64,000 nucleotides of DNA, taken from the NCBI RefSeq assembly GCF_013315695.1, contig NZ_CP054353.1; one strand, 5' to 3'. The notes under the pieces are model-generated. The model was not told where the DNA came from, did not search any database, and worked only from the letters and a program-made list of their open reading frames with translations. Position numbers and translations under genes: made by a program. The stretch's first letter is position 1. Each line of letters opens with the position of its first letter. Source of the stretch: Escherichia coli (GTDB taxonomy: Bacteria > Pseudomonadota > Gammaproteobacteria > Enterobacterales > Enterobacteriaceae). Of this stretch, positions 1 to 16,758 are shown in pieces.

Positions 1-204
1 ATGATTGAATCAGGCGAGCAATATACGCATGCCAGTCTGGAAGCAGCAATTAAAGCGCGTTTTGGTGAACAGGCACGTTTTCACACCTGCTCGGCAGAAG
101 GGATGACTGCGGGAGAGTTGGTGGCGTTTCTGGCAGCAAAAGGCAAATTTATACCTTCAGAAGAAGGTTTTTCAACCGATCAGAGTAAGATTTGCCGTCA
201 CTGA
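1..204 (+). CDS. yecH: YecH-like small protein, 5' end cut by window edge
   Basis: Open frame from window start to TGA at 202-204; tail ...FIPSEEGFSTDQSKICRH; position next to ftnA matches K-12 synteny. Confidence 0.7.
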   Translation: MIESGEQYTHASLEAAIKARFGEQARFHTCSAEGMTAGELVAFLAAKGKFIPSEEGFSTDQSKICRH

Positions 205-241
205 TTTGAAACGGCGGCAGAAAACCTGCCGCCGGAGAGCA

Positions 242-739
242 TTAGTTTTGTGTGTCGAGGGTAGAGAGTTCTTTGTCGATAAAATACAGACCTTCGCCGC
301 TTTTGCCTGCAAGGCTTAATTTATCAATAATCGATTTGAACAGTTTCTCTTCTTCATGCTGCTCAGAAACATACCATTGCAGGAAATTAAATGTTGGGTA
401 GTCCTGATTGGTCATTGCAGCATGAGCCAGTTCGTTAATTTTCTGCGTGATTAATTGTTCGTGTTTATAGGTTTCCTGGAATAATTCATCAAGTGAGGAA
501 TATTCAGCAAACGGAGATTCAACGGTATTAATACGCGGTAAGTTGCCGGTATCAGTCAGGTAATCAAACAGACGCTGCATATGCGTCATCTCTTCCTGGG
601 CGTGACGGCGCAGGAACGCGGCAGCACCTTCGAAGGTATGATAGCTGCACCAGGCGCTCATTTGCTGATAAAGCAGTGAAGAGTACAGTTCCAGGTTCAT
701 CTGCTCATTAAGTTTTTCAATCATTTCTGGTTTCAGCAT
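242..739 (-). CDS. ftnA: ferritin FtnA
   Basis: 165-aa product [21 protein letters not shown]... recognised as E. coli ferritin; track ORF 242-754 extends 5 codons upstream of the likely ATG. Confidence 0.93.
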
Positions 740-910
740 GATAGTGCTCCACAAAGGTTATATTTGTTGCTGTAGCGTCACTATAATTTGTTATTTTATT
801 ATTTGCAAAAGGTAAAATATAAATATCATTTATTAAAAATACGAATGGGAATAAAACGCATTACCGCTATTTATTTAATCAGCGAAGATCCCCCTCGCTG
901 ATTAAAACGT

Positions 911-1234
911 TTAGAGAAAGACAGGGAAGGCGGAATGATGGCACTGATATGACAAAGTGAATTCCGTATTCAAACATAAGGAACCCGCAAAGAGGCTACA
1001 GTTGCCTACTGGCTGACCAAAGGGGATAGCGTGGGTATAGCCTGCCTGCTGGCATGCGCGATCGGCGATCCCGCGACTGACATAACGATCGGTACTGGCA
1101 TGCTGCAAAAAAGCCTGATCATAAACCAACCGAACAATACCTGTTGCCGCGTCAACTTCGCTCACATGGGCCTGGCGAGTAACCGTACATCCTGTCAGCG
1201 TTATTAAGGAAAGAGTCAGAATCAGAAGTCTCAT
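911..1234 (-). CDS. yecR: lipoprotein YecR
   Basis: 107 aa; N-terminal signal peptide with lipobox LTGC. Confidence 0.85.
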   Translation of the reverse strand: MRLLILTLSLITLTGCTVTRQAHVSEVDAATGIVRLVYDQAFLQHASTDRYVSRGIADRACQQAGYTHAIPFGQPVGNCSLFAGSLCLNTEFTLSYQCHHSAFPVFL

Positions 1235-1497
1235 GGTCCAGCCAGAAGAGTAAAAGAAAGCAGTATTTTACGCGTTACAGCGCTGCGACAATGGCCGGAA
1301 AAGACGCCTGGCAGGCGCTATTTCTTGCCATCTGTATGTGTTAGAAATTGGGGGGGCTGCTTTTTGATTATCATTTTTATAACATTAAAGGGGTATTTAT
1401 GTGATTTACATCACATAAAGATTGATTTTTGTGATGGTTGTCATATTATAAACGTAAAGACAATAACACCTGTATAACAAATGGTCGGAGTACCGCG

Positions 1498-1584
1498 ATG
1501 AAACTGCGCAAGATCCTGAAAAGTATGTTCAATAACTATTGCAAGACGTTCAAAGACGTACCGCCAGGCAATATGTTCCGATAA
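1498..1584 (+). CDS. azuC: 28-aa small protein AzuC
   Basis: ATG 1498 to TAA 1582-1584 encodes MKLRKILKSMFNNYCKTFKDVPPGNMFR; too short for the ORF track; followed directly by a terminator. Confidence 0.75.
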   Translation: MKLRKILKSMFNNYCKTFKDVPPGNMFR

Positions 1585-1585
1585 C

Positions 1586-1612
1586 AAAAAACCTGCTCCG
1601 GCAGGTTTTTTT
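1586..1612 (+). terminator. rho-independent terminator of azuC
   Basis: Stem acctgc / gcaggt (1591-1606) followed by T7 run. Confidence 0.7.
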
Positions 1613-1698
1613 GTGTTCTGATGACGGTGGATGTGACTATCGCTGAAGATGTGAAGCCGCTACTATAACGGCTTTCAAAATGCTATCAGGAGTTTACG

Positions 1699-1950
1699 AT
1701 GTCCCAGCCGCTGAATGCCGATCAGGAACTGGTTTCTGATGTGGTTGCTTGCCAGTTGGTTATCAAACAAATTCTGGATGTTCTCGATGTGATCGCGCCC
1801 GTTGAAGTTCGCGAAAAAATGTCCAGCCAGCTGAAGAATATCGACTTTACTAACCATCCCGCCGCCGCAGACCCGGTCACCATGCGGGCAATCCAAAAAG
1901 CCATCGCGTTGATTGAACTCAAGTTTACCCCACAGGGCGAATCCCATTAA
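1699..1950 (+). CDS. yecJ: YecJ, DUF2766 protein
   Basis: 83 aa [21 protein letters not shown]... Confidence 0.85.
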
Positions 1951-1984
1951 AAAACCGCTGCTTCAAAAAAATGAGGCAGCGGTT
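1948..1984 (-). terminator. rho-independent terminator of ftnB
   Basis: Hairpin aaccgctgcttca / tgaggcagcggtt (1953-1984); on the minus strand it is followed by a U-tract (A-run 1949-1954 on plus). Confidence 0.55.
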
Positions 1985-2027
1985 TCTCAAAAACTTCATC
2001 GGCGCAATGCATTAGCGCCGATGATGA

Positions 2028-2531
2028 TCAATGTAGCTGATGCGACACGACATTCAGAACATGTTGGTCGGTCTGCACAGGACACATACCAGCAAGTTTC
2101 GCACTGCGCACTTCATCAAGAATGGTTTGCAGTAACAGGCCATCATGCTGCTGTTCTTTTTCCAGATCGCGCAGGAAATTGACGGTTGAATCATCATTCA
2201 GTTCTTTCGCTTCATCGGCTAACTGCGCCAGCGTGCTTGAACGTTGCTCGTATTCTTCCATCGTTTTTTGGAACAGTTCTTCCAGAGAGTTCAGTTTTTC
2301 ACCGGGAACATCAATGGCTTTAACGATGGGGGTAGCGCCGACACTCTTCATAAAGTTAAACATGCGCATCATTTGGGTCACATTACTCTGTGCCTGGGCG
2401 CGAAGGAAAGTGGCGGTGCCGTTCAGACTCTGTTCAGAACACCAGTTACTCAGGTGAAGGTAGAGATTGGATGCGTAAAACTCGCGGTTCATTTGAGAGT
2501 TGAGTTTGAGAAGCATTCCAGCGGTTGCCAT
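2028..2531 (-). CDS. ftnB: ferritin-like protein FtnB
   Basis: 167 aa [30 protein letters not shown]... Confidence 0.9.
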
Positions 2532-3327
2532 ACCTAATATCCTTATATCCAGAAGTGGAGAGGTGCAAGATAAATCAAAACACCATAATTACTGTTTGCA
2601 GAATAATTCCTTTCTGCCGGTCCGAAATGTGATCGTGGAGTCAATTCTGACGATGATCTGAAATAAGAATAACGTCTGAACGGGTATAAGAAAATGCTTA
2701 AATCATCAAGTTTATATATTTTTACATTTCATTGATGAAATCAATGTAACTGTAATGAATTTTAATGATGGTGCTTTTTGTATCTTGTTGATATTAATCG
2801 ATGAATTTGAATTCATGATGAAGCAATGATTTTATAAAACGTTTTTTCATTTTTGCGATATAGCTCTCATTATACGTGTTCTGTTAATTAATGAGTACAG
2901 TGATAATTAATGGCGAAATGAATGACGCGCATTTTCCACATCTTTAAGTTGCGGTTATTACACCATTGCAAAAACTCAACGCCAGGTAATGAGGCCTATT
3001 GACTGGTTAAAAAGAAGACATCCCGCATGGGTACCAAAGACAACAAGGACTTCCAGGCTAATCTTATGGATTATTCTGCTGTGCACTCGATAATTTGTCT
3101 GACAAATTCGCTTTTCCTTATGTCTTTTCCCGCTAAATTTATGCACGTTCTCACTGTAATTCTGCGATGTGATATTGCTCTCCTATGGAGAATTAATTTC
3201 TCGCTAAAACTATGTCAACACAGTCACTTATCTTTTAGTTAAAAGGTAATGCTTTGTTTTCCGATTAATTTAACGAATGTCATTCGTTTTTGCCCTACAC
3301 AAAACGACACTAAAGCTGGAGAGAACC
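2532..3327 (+). promoter_or_regulatory. ftnB-araF intergenic region carrying the araFGH promoter (sites not resolved)
   Basis: About 800 bp AT-rich non-coding DNA upstream of araF; individual AraC/CRP sites not confidently located by eye. Confidence 0.35.
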
Positions 3328-4317
3328 ATGCACAAATTTACTAAAGCCCTGGCAGCCATTGGTCTAGCAGCCGTTATGTCACAATCCGCTATGGCGGAGA
3401 ACCTGAAGCTCGGTTTCCTGGTGAAGCAACCGGAAGAGCCGTGGTTCCAGACCGAATGGAAGTTTGCCGATAAAGCCGGGAAGGATTTAGGGTTTGAAGT
3501 TATTAAGATTGCCGTGCCGGATGGCGAAAAAACATTGAACGCTATCGACAGCCTGGCTGCCAGTGGCGCGAAAGGTTTCGTTATTTGTACTCCGGACCCG
3601 AAACTCGGCTCTGCCATCGTGGCGAAAGCGCGTGGCTACGATATGAAAGTCATTGCCGTGGATGACCAGTTTGTTAACGCCAAAGGTAAGCCAATGGATA
3701 CCGTTCCGCTGGTGATGATGGCTGCGACCAAAATTGGCGAACGTCAGGGCCAGGAACTGTATAAAGAGATGCAGAAACGTGGCTGGGATGTCAAAGAAAG
3801 CGCGGTGATGGCGATTACCTCCAACGAACTGGATACGGCTCGTCGCCGTACTACGGGGTCTATGGATGCGCTGAAAGCTGCAGGATTCCCGGAAAAACAA
3901 ATTTATCAGGTACCTACCAAATCTAACGACATCCCGGGGGCATTTGACGCTGCCAACTCAATGCTGGTTCAACATCCGGAAGTTAAACATTGGCTGATTG
4001 TCGGTATGAACGACAGCACCGTGCTGGGCGGCGTACGCGCGACGGAAGGTCAGGGCTTTAAAGCGAGCGATATCATCGGTATCGGTATTAACGGTGTGGA
4101 TGCGGTGAGTGAACTGTCTAAGGCACAGGCAACCGGCTTCTACGGTTCCCTGCTGCCAAGCCCGGACGTACATGGTTATAAGTCCAGCGAAATGCTTTAC
4201 AACTGGGTTGCAAAAGGTGTTGAACCGACCAAATTCACCGAAGTTACCGACGTGGTGCTGATCACGCGTGACAACTTTAAAGAAGAACTGGAGAAAAAAG
4301 GTTTAGGCGGTAAGTAA
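3328..4317 (+). CDS. araF: L-arabinose ABC transporter periplasmic binding protein
   Basis: 329 aa from ATG 3328, MHKFTKALAAIGLAAVMSQSAMA signal peptide; track ORF starts 17 codons upstream. Confidence 0.95.
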   Translation: MHKFTKALAAIGLAAVMSQSAMAENLKLGFLVKQPEEPWFQTEWKFADKAGKDLGFEVIKIAVPDGEKTLNAIDSLAASGAKGFVICTPDPKLGSAIVAKARGYDMKVIAVDDQFVNAKGKPMDTVPLVMMAATKIGERQGQELYKEMQKRGWDVKESAVMAITSNELDTARRRTTGSMDALKAAGFPEKQIYQVPTKSNDIPGAFDAANSMLVQHPEVKHWLIVGMNDSTVLGGVRATEGQGFKASDIIGIGINGVDAVSELSKAQATGFYGSLLPSPDVHGYKSSEMLYNWVAKGVEPTKFTEVTDVVLITRDNFKEELEKKGLGGK

Positions 4318-4386
4318 TTTGCCGGAAAAATTCCCCTCTGCATGATGCAGAGGGGGTGTGAACGACCAGTGATTCACGGAGACGTT

Positions 4387-5901
4387 ATGCAACAGTCTAC
4401 CCCGTATCTCTCATTTCGCGGCATCGGTAAAACGTTTCCCGGCGTTAAGGCGCTGACGGATATTAGTTTTGACTGCTATGCCGGTCAGGTTCATGCGTTG
4501 ATGGGTGAAAATGGCGCAGGAAAATCAACTCTCTTAAAAATCCTCAGCGGAAACTATGCGCCAACCACGGGTTCTGTAGTGATTAATGGGCAGGAAATGT
4601 CCTTTTCCGACACGACCGCAGCACTTAACGCGGGGGTGGCGATTATTTACCAGGAACTGCATCTCGTGCCGGAAATGACCGTCGCGGAAAACATCTATCT
4701 CGGCCAGCTGCCGCATAAAGGCGGCATTGTGAATCGTTCATTGCTGAATTATGAGGCAGGTTTACAAATTAAACATCTTGGTATGGATATTGACCCGGAC
4801 ACGCCGCTGAAATATCTCTCCATTGGTCAGTGGCAGATGGTTGAAATCGCCAAAGCGCTGGCGCGTAACGCCAAAATTATCGCCTTTGATGAGCCAACCA
4901 GCTCCCTCTCTGCCCGCGAAATCGACAATCTTTTCCGCGTTATTCGTGAACTGCGAAAAGAGGGGCGGGTGATCTTATACGTTTCTCACCGTATGGAAGA
5001 AATATTTGCCCTCAGCGATGCCATCACCGTCTTTAAAGATGGGCGTTATGTCAAAACCTTTACCGATATGCAGCAGGTTGACCACGACGCACTGGTGCAG
5101 GCGATGGTCGGGCGAGACATTGGCGATATCTACGGCTGGCAACCGCGTAGTTATGGCGAGGAGCGGCTGCGTCTTGATGCTGTGAAAGCACCAGGCGTGC
5201 GTACGCCAATAAGTCTGGCGGTTCGCAGTGGAGAAATTGTCGGTCTGTTTGGTCTGGTCGGGGCAGGGCGTAGCGAATTAATGAAAGGCATGTTTGGCGG
5301 GACGCAAATCACCGCCGGTCAGGTTTATATCGACCAACAGCCGATCGATATTCGTAAACCGAGCCACGCCATTGCCGCAGGCATGATGCTCTGCCCGGAA
5401 GATCGCAAAGCGGAAGGCATTATTCCCGTGCACTCCGTTCGCGACAATATCAACATCAGTGCCAGACGCAAACATGTGCTCGGCGGTTGTGTAATCAACA
5501 ACGGTTGGGAAGAAAACAATGCCGATCACCACATTCGTTCGCTCAACATCAAAACGCCGGGCGCTGAGCAACTGATCATGAATCTCTCAGGCGGAAATCA
5601 GCAAAAAGCTATTCTGGGCCGCTGGTTATCGGAAGAGATGAAGGTCATTTTGCTGGATGAACCTACGCGTGGCATTGATGTTGGTGCTAAGCATGAAATT
5701 TACAACGTGATTTATGCGCTGGCGGCGCAGGGTGTGGCGGTGCTGTTTGCCTCCAGCGACTTACCTGAAGTCCTCGGCGTTGCCGACCGGATTGTGGTGA
5801 TGCGGGAAGGCGAAATCGCCGGTGAATTGTTACACGAGCAGGCAGATGAGCGTCAGGCACTGAGCCTTGCGATGCCTAAAGTCAGCCAGGCAGTTGCCTG
5901 A
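4387..5901 (+). CDS. araG: L-arabinose ABC transporter ATP-binding protein
   Basis: 504 aa [17 protein letters not shown]...; two Walker A motifs ([17 protein letters not shown]). Confidence 0.95.
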
Positions 5902-5915
5902 GTAAGGAGAGTATG

Positions 5916-9268
<3,353 letters not shown>

Positions 9269-9274
9269 GTGCGG

Positions 9275-9703
9275 TTAATCTCCCGTAAGTGGAACTAACA
9301 GCACATCGACCTCACTTGAGGTAATCACTCTTTTCGCCGAGCAGGATGCTCGCGAAAAGAAACTGTGATTGTGATTACCGCAAATCACCAAATCGAAATG
9401 ATGTTTGCGACAAACTTCCAGAATATGTTCGCTTAACTCACCGTAGGCAATAAACGTCTTGTCAACGGGATACCCCGCATCCTGAATTAACTTATCAAGA
9501 AAGCTTTGCGTTTCTTCCTGCATCACATTGCGTAAATCTTCAAGCATCGGCGCAGCTAATTGATTGTACATTTCCGGGTCGGAAGCGAGAGTAATTAAAC
9601 TGATGTGTCCCTTTACTGGCCTGGCGATAGATACCGCTTTTGCCAGCAGTTGCTGACTTTCCGGTGTAACCGCAACGGCGACAAGAATATTGCTATAGCT
9701 CAT
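9275..9703 (-). CDS. uspC: universal stress protein C
   Basis: 142 aa MSYSNILVAVAVTPESQ... Confidence 0.9.
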   Translation of the reverse strand: MSYSNILVAVAVTPESQQLLAKAVSIARPVKGHISLITLASDPEMYNQLAAPMLEDLRNVMQEETQSFLDKLIQDAGYPVDKTFIAYGELSEHILEVCRKHHFDLVICGNHNHSFFSRASCSAKRVITSSEVDVLLVPLTGD

Positions 9704-10482
9704 AACCTGTTCCTTATTCTGTGAACTTCAGGTGACATTAAAGCTTTACTCCTAATGGAGAAACGACGCAATCCCAACTCAGTTAAACAGGTAAATATTA
9801 GTCTGGTCATTAGTAAATACAATTAATTAATTGCTCTTGGTTATCATATGATTTCAACTGTATTTATAAGAAAATAATGTACTGATTTCCCATATTGAAC
9901 AAGTGGTTAATATATGTAAAACATTTTATTAATATTAGGTTGATTGTTGCCTTTCTTTGTAGTTAATTAGTTTGTTGTGCGGTAAGTGTTTGTTTAAAAA
10001 TGGCTTATCTGGTATTGCATTAAAGCGATTATTTATAGCAGATGATTATTTACGGTGAGTTATTTTAACTGTGCGCAACATCCCATTTCGATTATTCCTG
10101 TTTCATTTTTGCTTGCCAGTGTAGCGAAAAATTTTTTAACAGATTGAAATACACCCAAAACAAAAGTATGACTTATACATTTATGTTAAGTAATTGAGCG
10201 TTTTGCGTGATCTGCATCACACATTATTGAAAATCGCAGCCCCCCTCCGTTGTATGTGCGTGTAGTGACGAGTACAGTTGCGTCGATTTAGGAAAAATCT
10301 TAGATAAGTGTAAAGACTCCCTTCTATTTGTAAGGACTTATTAAACCAAAAAGGTGGGTCTGCTTATTGCAGCTTATCGCAACTATTCTAATGCTAATTA
10401 TTTTTTACCGGGGCTTCCCGGCGACATCACGGGGTGCGGTGTGACCGCATAAAAATAAAGTTGGTTATTCTGGGTGGGAATA
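9704..10482 (+). promoter_or_regulatory. flhDC upstream regulatory region, about 780 bp, no IS element present
   Basis: Long AT-rich leader/promoter region upstream of flhD; no IS1/IS5-like ORFs or terminal repeats. Confidence 0.5.
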
Positions 10483-10833
10483 ATGCATACCTCCGAGTTG
10501 CTGAAACACATTTATGACATCAACTTGTCATATTTACTACTTGCACAGCGTCTGATTGTTCAGGACAAAGCGTCCGCTATGTTTCGTCTCGGCATAAATG
10601 AAGAAATGGCGACAACGTTAGCGGCACTGACTCTTCCGCAAATGGTTAAGCTGGCAGAAACCAATCAACTGGTTTGTCACTTCCGTTTTGACAGCCACCA
10701 GACGATTACTCAGTTGACGCAAGATTCCCGCGTTGACGATCTCCAGCAAATTCATACCGGCATCATGCTCTCAACACGCTTGCTGAATGATGTTAATCAG
10801 CCTGAAGAAGCGCTGCGCAAGAAAAGGGCCTGA
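10483..10833 (+). CDS. flhD: flagellar master regulator FlhD
   Basis: 116 aa from ATG 10483 ([24 protein letters not shown]...); track ORF starts at GTG 10474. Confidence 0.93.
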
Positions 10834-10835
10834 TC

Positions 10836-11414
10836 ATGAGTGAAAAAAGCATTGTTCAGGAAGCGCGGGATATTCAGCTGGCAATGGAATTGATCACCCT
10901 GGGCGCTCGTTTGCAGATGCTAGAAAGCGAAACACAGTTAAGTCGCGGACGTCTGATAAAACTCTATAAAGAACTGCGCGGAAGCCCACCGCCGAAAGGC
11001 ATGCTGCCATTCTCAACCGACTGGTTTATGACCTGGGAACAAAATGTTCATGCTTCGATGTTCTGTAATGCATGGCAGTTTTTACTGAAAACTGGCTTGT
11101 GTAATGGCGTTGATGCGGTGATCAAAGCCTACCGTTTATACCTTGAACAGTGCCCGCAAGCAGAAGAAGGACCGCTGCTGGCATTAACCCGTGCCTGGAC
11201 ATTGGTGCGGTTTGTTGAAAGTGGATTACTGCAACTTTCCAGCTGCAACTGCTGCGGCGGCAATTTTATTACCCACGCTCACCAGCCTGTTGGCAGCTTT
11301 GCCTGCAGCTTATGTCAGCCGCCATCCCGGGCAGTAAAAAGACGTAAACTTTCCCAGAATCCTGCCGATATTATCCCACAACTGCTGGATGAACAGAGAG
11401 TACAGGCTGTTTAA
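10836..11414 (+). CDS. flhC: flagellar master regulator FlhC
   Basis: 192 aa [27 protein letters not shown]...; zinc-binding Cys cluster near the C-terminus. Confidence 0.95.
11345..11371 (+). promoter_or_regulatory. sigma28 (FliA) promoter of the motAB-cheAW operon, inside the flhC 3' end
   Basis: TAAACTTT (11345-11352), 11-bp spacer, GCCGATAT (11364-11371); matches the TAAAGTTT-N11-GCCGATAA consensus. Confidence 0.7.
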
Positions 11415-11472
11415 CTGATACGGTGTGGCGAAACATTCCAGCAGCGGTAACGATGTACCGCTGCTTTTTTTT
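11379..11472 (+). ncRNA. motR: candidate MotR sRNA (motA 5' UTR-derived)
   Basis: About 94 nt between the sigma28 promoter and the intrinsic terminator at 11439-11472; coordinates approximate. Confidence 0.35.
11439..11472 (+). terminator. rho-independent terminator downstream of flhC
   Basis: Stem gcagcggta / taccgctgc followed by T8. Confidence 0.7.
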
Positions 11473-11540
11473 GCCCCTATCGCGTGTTAACGCCTGACGA
11501 CTGAACATCCTGTCATGGTCAACAGTGGAAGGATGATGTC

Positions 11541-11822
11541 GTGCTTATCTTATTAGGTTACCTGGTTGTTCTCGGTACAGTTTTCGGCGGTTATTTGATG
11601 ACCGGTGGAAGCCTTGGAGCACTCTATCAACCCGCTGAACTGGTGATTATTGCCGGTGCAGGGATTGGGTCGTTTATCGTCGGCAATAATGGCAAAGCGA
11701 TTAAAGGCACGCTGAAGGCGCTGCCGTTGCTGTTTCGTCGCTCCAAATACACCAAAGCAATGTATATGGATCTGCTGGCTCTGCTTTATCGGTTGATGGC
11801 GAAATCGCGGCAGATGGGGTAA
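11541..11822 (+). pseudogene. motA: motA 5' fragment (codons 1-93), interrupted by IS4
   Basis: GTG start, MLILLGYLVVLGTVFGGYLMTGG...AKSRQMG, then stop TAA formed by the first bases of IS4. Confidence 0.9.
11808..11819 (+). repeat. IS4 target-site duplication, left copy (cggcagatgggg)
   Basis: Identical 12-mer at 13246-13257 directly flanks the other IS4 end. Confidence 0.9.
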
Positions 11823-13245
11823 TGCCAGTCAGTTAAGCAACTGACTGGCTCTTTTTCGGGGCTGTGGGGTATTTCCAGGGCCTCTCCTTTACCACTCTCG
11901 GGAAGGCCCTTTCCCTTCTTGTCGGTAATTTCACAAGTTGTCCCATACTTGCAAGATCGCGCATCAGCTCCGGTATACGTCCCGGTGAAGCGCCCTGCAA
12001 TGTCATCAGCATTCTCATCACCATTCCGCATGATTCTGAGAAACTCAGTTGATTCGGCCAGTAACCTTTCAGATGTTCCGCCATTTTAATCATCTGATAT
12101 CTCACCAGATTATAAGCCAGTAAGACACCCCACAGCTCTTGCTCCACAAGCTCCGGTTTTTTACTTCTCAGCGTCAGCCTGCTCAGTTGCATCGTCTGTT
12201 TTATCTCCCTGTATCCCAGTTCGATTTCCCAGCGATGACTGTACAGATCCGCCATTTCTCCTCCGGGGAAGCGCATGGCGTCCGTCATCGACGTCAGCAG
12301 ATGGCAGACTTTTCCTTTGCGCGTCACGGTCAGCAGGCGGGCTGTCACTTCATTTCCCAGTCCCGGCCACTTTTTTCGTGCCTGCGGGCTGGTTTTCAGC
12401 TTCACCAGATGATCGCCTTTACCCAGTTTTCTGATCTCTTCATATTGCGCTCCCTTTCTGAGAGGTATCATCCAGTGGCGGTGTTCTCCCGCCAGGCTCC
12501 AGGCATTTAACAGTCCCAGTGAGTAATAACCTTTATCCATTAACGTCAGAGTGTTATCGCCGGTTTGTTCTATAAGTTGCTCAGCAAGCTCATTTTCGCT
12601 GTTCTTCATCGTGCCGAAGGCTGCAGCCGTCAGCAGATGGCTGGTCAGTTCCATCTGGCAGACCATTTTGACCTGCGGGTAGAGCGCCGGGTTCCCGGCA
12701 TGTGTCTGGCGGGGGAAGGCTGCATCGTTCTCTGGTGTATCCGGTGTGCGCCAGAACACACCATCGATGGCCAGCAGGGTCAGGCCGCACCAGTGCGGAT
12801 GCGGCGTGGCGTTATGCCAGAGCTGCGCTGTTTTCGTGAACACGCGGCGGACAGCCTCACTTCCCAGGCGCTGGCGGGCCTGAATAACGGCACTGGGGGC
12901 AACGAAGGGGCGATTGCCCGGCAGCATGATGTCCAGGCGATTCACAATCTGGTGAAGAGGTTCTTTACGCTCAAGCGCCATGCCAACAATACACCAGACC
13001 ATCATTTCGAGGGGAAGACGGCGCTTGCGTAGCGTTACAGTACCTGATTCGGCAAGGCAACGAGAGATGAGTTCGGGGTCGAGGTAATCCCCCAGAGAAG
13101 TCAGTGGGTTACGCAGAGAATCGTAACGGGATACCAGATCAAGAGCCTGTCCAATGTGCATAAAAAAATCCGGAAACAAGTGAGCGTTTCCGGATTCTTA
13201 CACAGCCACTGGATCGGTCAACTGATCCTTAACTGATCGGCATTA
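11820..13245 (-). mobile_element. insertion sequence IS4, complete, 1426 bp
   Basis: Imperfect terminal inverted repeats (left taatgccagtcagttaag, right-end reverse complement taatgccgatcagttaag, 16/18 match); one 442-aa transposase ORF; length equals the canonical IS4 size; flanked by 12-bp direct repeats. Confidence 0.92.
11833..13161 (-). CDS. insG: IS4 transposase InsG (DDE family)
   Basis: 442 aa from ATG 13161 ([48 protein letters not shown]...); track ORF starts at an upstream TTG (13179). Confidence 0.9.
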
Positions 13246-13257
13246 CGGCAGATGGGG
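13246..13257 (+). repeat. IS4 target-site duplication, right copy (cggcagatgggg)
   Basis: Identical to 11808-11819. Confidence 0.9.
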
Positions 13258-13862
13258 ATGTTTTCGCTGGAACGCGATATTGAAAATCCCCGTGAGAGTG
13301 AGATCTTCGCCAGCTACCCACGCATCCTTGCGGATAGCGTCATGCTTGAATTTATCGTCGATTATCTGCGCCTGATTATCAGTGGTCACATGAACACCTT
13401 CGAAATCGAAGCTCTGATGGATGAAGAGATTGAGACGCACGAAAGCGAGGCAGAAGTCCCGGCGAACAGTCTGGCGCTGGTCGGGGACTCACTTCCGGCG
13501 TTTGGTATTGTTGCGGCTGTAATGGGGGTCGTTCACGCGTTAGGTTCAGCCGATCGTCCTGCCGCCGAGCTGGGGGCGCTTATCGCTCATGCGATGGTGG
13601 GGACTTTCCTCGGTATTTTATTGGCTTACGGATTTATTTCCCCATTAGCGAGTGTTTTACGTCAGAAAAGCGCCGAAACCAGCAAAATGATGCAGTGCGT
13701 CAAAGTCACTCTGCTTTCAAATCTGAACGGTTACGCACCGCCTATCGCCGTTGAGTTTGGTCGCAAAACGCTCTATTCCAGCGAACGTCCGTCGTTTATT
13801 GAGCTGGAAGAGCATGTGCGTGCGGTGAAAAATCCGCAACAACAGACGACAACCGAGGAAGC

Positions 13863-13866
<4 letters not shown>
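13246..13866 (+). pseudogene. motA: motA 3' fragment (codons 90-295)
   Basis: In-frame continuation RQMGMFSLERDIENPRESEIF...QQQTTTEEA; stop overlaps the motB ATG. Confidence 0.9.

Positions 13867-16758
<2,892 letters not shown>

Follow-up and report, generated by a model that had tools for sequence, protein, structure and literature searches.

The boundary between flhC and motA in this Escherichia coli locus places a promoter and a terminator characteristic of a small regulatory RNA just upstream of a motA coding sequence broken by IS4, which raises the question of what this element is and whether it can still be expressed. The window, by which we mean the whole stretch of 64,000 nucleotides that was analysed, provides all coordinates given below, and features lie on its plus strand unless another strand is named. 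We assign a probability of roughly 0.9 to the reading that the interval 11378-11472 is E. coli motR, an already known gene, in a lineage in which its promoter is probably nearly silent.

Identity of the motR locus

FlhD and FlhC are encoded by window positions 10483-11414, and both proteins are 100% identical to those of E. coli K-12. The flhC coding sequence (10836-11414, 192 aa) is intact, and its final 70 nt hold a sigma-28 promoter together with the first 37 nt of MotR. The motR gene, 95 nt long and originating from the motA 5' UTR, occupies 11378-11472: its +1 at 11378 lies 37 nt before the end of the flhC stop codon (11414), and its 3' end falls in the flhC-motA intergenic region, on the strand of both genes. 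The relation to flhC is identical in MG1655, where RefSeq annotates the ncRNA motR as b4828 (1977208-1977302, minus strand, 95 nt), overlapping the last 37 nt of flhC. The window copy and b4828 have equal start and length and agree at 92 of 95 positions with no indels, the substitutions relative to MG1655 being A49U, C54A and C77U.

MotR was defined by Melamed et al. (2023, eLife 12:RP87151; PMC10578931) as an RNA deriving from the motA 5' UTR. Its sigma-28 promoter is situated within flhC and also drives motAB-cheAW; the Hfq-bound form measures ~95 nt, and longer bands correspond to readthrough past the MotR terminator (PMC10578931). Primer SM001, used for motR cloning in that study, begins ACAACTGCTGG, which corresponds to window 11378, and the published 'TGC at positions 6-8' is consistent with a +1 at the same base. 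The earlier note had proposed, from the letters of the window, that a MotR module is preserved in the motA leader. This is borne out by the agreement of the b4828 annotation, the 92/95 identity and primer SM001; the alignment with published MotR starts at 11378 with positions 6-8 in register, and the published coordinates map to this interval and not elsewhere. The predicted transcript of about 95 nt ending at 11472 was likewise placed correctly, since 11378-11472 spans 95 nt.

A scan of window 10000-14000 against Rfam 15 at E ≤ 1 gave zero matches. Rfam 15 holds no family for the motR region, so this null scan says nothing against the identification, which, there being no curated covariance model for motR, rests on the RefSeq annotation and PMC10578931. 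By its identity to K-12 MotR, the RNA encoded here would be a sigma-28-dependent, Hfq-binding sRNA. The locus carries little weight as a discovery, as the reference genome already lists motR, experiments characterised it in 2023, and 99% of complete E. coli genomes contain it.

Architecture of the promoter and terminator

The promoter consists of an upstream element, TAAACTTT, at 11345-11352 and a downstream element, GCCGATAT, at 11364-11371, each matching its consensus (TAAAGTTT and GCCGATAA, respectively) at 7 of 8 positions. Taken together, TAAACTTT-N11-GCCGATAT agrees with the sigma-28 consensus TAAAGTTT-N11-GCCGATAA at 14 of 16 positions, and the promoter ends 6 nt before +1. The location and type given in the earlier note for a 'consensus' promoter in the 3' end of flhC stand, and the word itself is to be softened to near-consensus. 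Across the 64-kb window, sigma-28 sites with at most two mismatches number two, namely the motR promoter and a perfect tar promoter at 17369; with at most three mismatches there are five, against 0.56 expected. Over the 60 nt upstream of the motR +1, the window departs from K-12 only at -60, positions -59 to -1 being identical.

The intrinsic terminator, common to the flhDC operon and MotR, extends over 11440-11472 and is recognised by its fold and by cross-species covariation. Its hairpin (11440-11465) comprises a stem of 10 bp (11440-11449 with 11456-11465), of which six are G-C pairs, and a 6-nt loop; the T run at 11465-11472 reads as eight U in the RNA. The centroid fold of MotR retains this hairpin. 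A strong terminator had been placed at 11439-11472, which is off by at most one base, the hairpin beginning at 11440. The accompanying distance of '94 nt' from promoter to terminator is correct as the interval from promoter start to hairpin start and is not the transcript length.

In this arrangement, RNA polymerase carrying sigma-28 (FliA) would start at 11378, with 37 nt of flhC still ahead. Most of the resulting transcripts would stop at the terminator ending at 11472, releasing the 95-nt Hfq-binding MotR, and those that pass it would become the motAB-cheAW mRNA; the same terminator would also close the flhDC operon. The MotR of K-12 base-pairs within the coding regions of several mRNAs, rpsJ and fliC among them, and it has been demonstrated in K-12 to raise S10 levels and so promote flagellar gene expression (PMC10578931).

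Conservation of the module

Of 5426 complete E. coli genomes, 5376 (99%) carry the 128-nt module, always at an identity of at least 95%, and in 1128 of them its identity to the window copy reaches 99% or more. The motR gene of the window, structurally intact, is a natural allele in common circulation. For comparison of the promoter, flhC loci were retrieved from 80 Enterobacterales species. The best sigma-28 match occupies one and the same position, 70 nt before the end of the flhC stop codon, in 80/80 species, and the upstream element across the Enterobacterales set reads TAAACTTT in 77 and TAAACTTA in 4.

Synonymous sites were analysed in the 72 species with an ungapped flhC; the 144 codons that combine conservation with degeneracy have an average codon entropy of 1.2 bits. 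Frozen synonymous sites occur in 15 of these 144 codons, and 13 of the 15 are within the last 26 codons of flhC. Such freezing at the flhC 3' end points to selection on the nucleotides and not on the protein. The frozen codons 167-172 span TAAACTTT and the A-rich stretch just 5' of it, codons 170-172 being frozen in 72/72 species. Codons 177-178 (GCC GAT, the downstream promoter element) are invariant in 72/72, and codons 182-187, which correspond to MotR nt 2-19, have frozen synonymous sites in 72/72. The A-rich stretch itself, at 11336-11344 (codons 167-169, GTAAAAAGA), has synonymous sites frozen across the 72 species immediately 5' of TAAACTTT; this pattern suggests an A-rich upstream promoter element.

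MotR was aligned in 61 sequences from Enterobacteriaceae and Erwiniaceae, comprising 60 distinct species sequences, and the promoter and terminator are conserved in position throughout both families. Across the 60 distinct sequences, 98.5% of cells in the terminator stem are paired, and three stem pairs show compensatory change, a covariation score reached by 0/500 shuffles. Invariance in this set is greatest in MotR nt 2-17 and, within the terminator, in the left arm and lower stem. Variation between species is seen in the middle of the molecule, which includes the published seed neighbourhood, and in the upper stem and the loop. Window 11379-11394 (MotR nt 2-17) is the most constrained part of MotR, being invariant in the 61 sequences, and it is not the published seed.

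In Pectobacterium, Brenneria and Serratia, the sigma-28 promoter is kept, and the hairpin is different or missing. Pectobacterium and Brenneria retain the 5' box and have an unrelated hairpin, CTATCACTG...CGGTGATAG, with a weak T tail, ~55-95 nt after the MotR +1; Serratia has still other hairpins downstream of the +1. On these comparisons, the MotR 3' module is taken to have been replaced during evolution.

Alleles beside the seed and predicted rpsJ pairing

The published seed neighbourhood, MotR nt 43-54, corresponds to 11420-11431; within it, 11423-11425 preserve the GUG triplet (nt 46-48) that the M1 mutation alters. The natural substitutions A49U (11426) and C54A (11431) flank this triplet; C77U is located in the terminator loop. 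The best predicted seed-region duplex of K-12 MotR is formed by nt 43-54 with rpsJ +141..+154, at -22.4 kcal/mol, and this predicted site agrees with the published MotR footprint on rpsJ at '~+150' (PMC10578931). For the window allele, the predicted energy at the same site is -15.1 kcal/mol, about 7 kcal/mol weaker. This loss has two sources: a U now stands against U146 (a second codon position in rpsJ), giving a U-U mismatch, and one terminal pair disappears. Purely as a prediction, then, the window allele (U49, A54) pairs less well with rpsJ than the K-12 allele does. In E. albertii, Citrobacter and Salmonella the consensus base is U49, with U also at the aligned position in Enterobacter, so that the A49 of K-12 is the derived base. 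The published MotR experiments all used the K-12 allele. Two points may be of interest to sRNA specialists: natural MotR alleles differ beside the seed in a manner that alters predicted rpsJ pairing, and the strongest constraint on MotR is at its 5' end and not at the published seed.

The IS4 insertion in motA

Downstream of the module, motA is split into a 5' fragment (11541-11819), which retains codons 1-93 and takes its stop codon from the IS4 end, and a 3' fragment (13246-13866), which sequence comparison assigns to codons 90-295. Between them is IS4 (11820-13245), 1426 bp in length, with 18-bp imperfect terminal inverted repeats whose arms are 89% complementary and a transposase ORF of 442 aa, counted from its ATG, on the minus strand. 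Its insertion duplicated 12 bp of the target, CGGCAGATGGGG, now found at 11808-11819 and 13246-13257. All features that define IS4 are found here (a length of 1426 bp, repeats of ~18 bp, a duplication of 11-13 bp and an IS4-family transposase), and the matching copies in complete E. coli genomes bear the annotation 'IS4-like element IS4 family transposase'.

IS4 sits 348 bp downstream of the MotR 3' end and leaves the module untouched, so the survival of motR is expected and needs no explanation. The earlier note had seen a contrast between the kept MotR and the destroyed motA; with the insertion at that distance and the module in 99% of genomes, the contrast is not remarkable.

The motA-IS4 junction was absent from all 5426 complete E. 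coli genomes searched. In a protein look-up, the exact 93-aa MotA fragment was found in 151 blocks of public assemblies, among them gut metagenomes and GCA_003651345.1, and the contigs that carry it break at the IS. The presence of the fragment in these 151 blocks indicates that motA::IS4 marks a circulating lineage, one that is under-represented among finished genomes.

Inside the IS4 end, on the motA strand, window 11824-11849 contains a perfect hairpin of 11 bp with TCTTTTT after it, and its stem of 11 pairs is the longest among the terminator-like sites of the region. Any readthrough from the MotR promoter would probably stop at this hairpin, and the insertion would then be polar on motB-cheA-cheW.

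Flagellar decay and the expression of MotR

The strain is more than a motor mutant, and the context in which motR has to be placed is that of a lineage losing its flagellar regulon stepwise. Within the window, the mot, che and flh genes are intact other than motA and flhB, and tap is a remnant. In flhB (22559-23707), a TGG codon at 23591-23593 has become TGA, producing the premature stop W345* in a protein with a full length of 382 aa. In E. coli MSB1_4I (NZ_LR898874.1), the annotation classes this gene as a pseudogene ('internal stop'). The tap remnant, at 19134-19357 between tar and cheR, consists of about the first 45 and the last 38 codons; uropathogenic E. coli of phylogroup B2 have been reported to lose tap.

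MSB1_4I is a clone-mate of the window strain. It is 100% identical to the window over 1-11819 and differs by three mismatches over 13246-43000; in the 41.6 kb compared, the only further difference is IS4 with its duplication. In the yedK-rcsA interval of MSB1_4I (NZ_LR898874.1 3046659-3047457), fliE-fliR are replaced by IS1 and a 90-bp fliR remnant. The segment fliE-fliQ is deleted, and with it the MS ring, the C ring and most of the export gate are gone; fliA, fliZ, fliC and fliDST are intact. As fliA, flgM and fliE-R lie outside the window, we infer the fliE-fliQ deletion in the window strain from this clone-mate. The lineage thus appears unable to build a hook-basal body.

In the established model, FlgM is not exported when the hook-basal body is missing, and sigma-28 promoters are repressed (PMC13432727). 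Because no basal body would be formed, FlgM would be retained and sigma-28 would be inactive, and the motR promoter in this strain is probably nearly silent. Here motR is most likely an intact, largely unexpressed and recently orphaned gene of a decaying regulon, and not a retained regulator. The steps of this decay comprise the tap remnant, the flhB nonsense mutation, the fliE-fliQ deletion (seen in the clone-mate) and then IS4 in motA. We infer that the insertion into motA was a late event and that the flagellar regulon was unbuildable beforehand.

The alternative that survives best, and which we nevertheless consider unlikely, is that MotR is still transcribed at a roughly normal level, the motA mutant being merely paralysed with sigma-28 active. 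Consistent with it, no damage is seen in flhD, flhC, the promoter, the MotR body or the terminator, fliA is intact in MSB1_4I, and Mot- mutants are known to be flagellate: a plain motA mutant builds flagella, which are paralysed, and exports FlgM. Even with FlgM retained in the cell, sigma-28 promoters have some basal activity. The FlhB W345* product might moreover be leaky. Aquifex FlhB is naturally 33 residues shorter than Salmonella FlhB, and C-terminal FlhB truncations have been isolated as fliK suppressors; FlhB ending at residue 344 may still be competent for export, and the flhB truncation by itself is not decisive for the loss of sigma-28 release. Against normal transcription stand the premature stop of flhB inside the window, the missing fliE-fliQ of MSB1_4I, identical to the window bar IS4 and three mismatches, and the FlgM checkpoint, which holds class 3 promoters off when there is no basal body (PMC13432727). 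On the same three grounds, the suggestion in the earlier note that MotR may still be made in this strain is doubtful.

A candidate anti-terminator in the 5' box

The strongly constrained 5' end of MotR allows a further reading, in which the element is primarily a cis-acting attenuator of motAB-cheAW and the sRNA and the mRNA are two outputs of one switch. We give this a low probability. MotR nt 5-12, CUGCUGGA, at 11382-11389, lie in the invariant 5' box (nt 2-17) and are the candidate anti-terminator strand. They are exactly complementary over 8 bp to nt 60-67, UCCAGCAG, at 11437-11444, with a duplex energy of -14.8 kcal/mol. As nt 60-67 belong to the left-arm side of the terminator, the helices 5-12/60-67 and 63-72/79-88 are mutually exclusive. 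An attenuator of this kind would operate through pairing of nt 5-12 with nt 60-67 once the left arm had been transcribed, which would block the hairpin and permit readthrough into motA; where pairing failed, the terminator would form and the 95-nt MotR would be released. The more specific proposal, that nt 5-12 act as an intrinsic anti-terminator setting the ratio of MotR to motAB-cheAW mRNA from the single sigma-28 promoter, is a model that we regard as tentative and rather improbable. If true, it would make one hairpin efficient for flhDC transcripts and leaky for sigma-28 transcripts.

Several observations point towards such a switch. The 5-12/60-67 helix is the minimum-energy fold of the nascent prefixes 1-67 to 1-82, for both the window and the K-12 alleles, and the complete RNA favours the terminator (-28.7 vs -25.5 kcal/mol, a gap of 3.2 kcal/mol). 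In the 60 distinct species sequences, the helix is 99.4% paired with zero variation in either strand, and the synonymous sites of flhC codons 182-187 are frozen. The strong terminator between motA and its only known promoter calls for a readthrough mechanism. MotR*, in which nt 6-8 are changed from UGC to GAG, was described as 'more abundant' and was identified by chance (PMC10578931). In silico, this mutation abolishes the 5-12/60-67 helix, which would favour termination, and an anti-terminator, if real, would explain the greater abundance of MotR*.

Other observations weaken the case. With neither strand ever varying, covariation of the helix is unscorable, and 4.9% of shuffles contain a perfect 7-mer complement. 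The CUGCUGG box is kept in 8/9 of the Pectobacterium, Brenneria and Serratia species compared, in which the hairpin is different and does not contain CCAGCAG, so the box must be conserved for another reason too. In PMC10578931, readthrough is attributed to S10-NusB, and a second, M1-independent pairing region of MotR on fliC, described in the same paper, could explain the 5' conservation.

Sequestration of the left arm in the nascent fold was considered as special support for the anti-terminator and was dropped, as 46% of shuffled upstream sequences do likewise. With this argument removed, the invariance of the strands and the coincidence with MotR* are what remain for it. Inspection by eye of the 5' box against the motA ribosome-binding region revealed no convincing complement, and a full-text literature search for a motA-leader anti-terminator returned nothing beyond the MotR paper.

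The weakest explanation, that the short RNA is a functionless by-product of the flhDC terminator and the motA promoter with no regulatory module at all, is very improbable: the terminator does lie directly 3' of the flhC stop codon, where it must end flhDC transcripts, and motAB-cheAW needs the promoter with or without an sRNA, but Hfq co-immunoprecipitation and RIL-seq chimeras have been published, a chromosomal motR-M1 seed mutant has fewer flagella and reduced motility (PMC10578931), and conservation in the MotR body extends to blocks that a terminator does not need, so that this explanation is largely refuted already by K-12 genetics.

Comparison with known systems

In conclusion, the preferred reading, a known motR with a probably nearly silent promoter, can be set beside three known systems. 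The IS4 element resembles the IS4 (insG) of E. coli K-12 in its 1426 bp, 18-bp repeats, 12-bp duplication and 442-aa transposase, and its end is ~97% identical to IS4 copies of complete E. coli genomes. The small-RNA gene matches K-12 MotR (b4828) in locus, 95-nt length, sigma-28 promoter sequence and terminator stem, and the GUG seed triplet at nt 46-48 is also intact. What differs from K-12 is the context, in which motA is broken by IS4 and the flagellar regulon is decaying. Like other 5' UTR-derived sRNAs that originate from premature intrinsic termination, motR uses one promoter for an sRNA and a full-length mRNA, and its terminator hairpin and U tail double as the Hfq-binding 3' module. 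Unlike them, it has a terminator that also ends the upstream operon, flhDC, and its promoter and first 37 nt are embedded inside a coding sequence.
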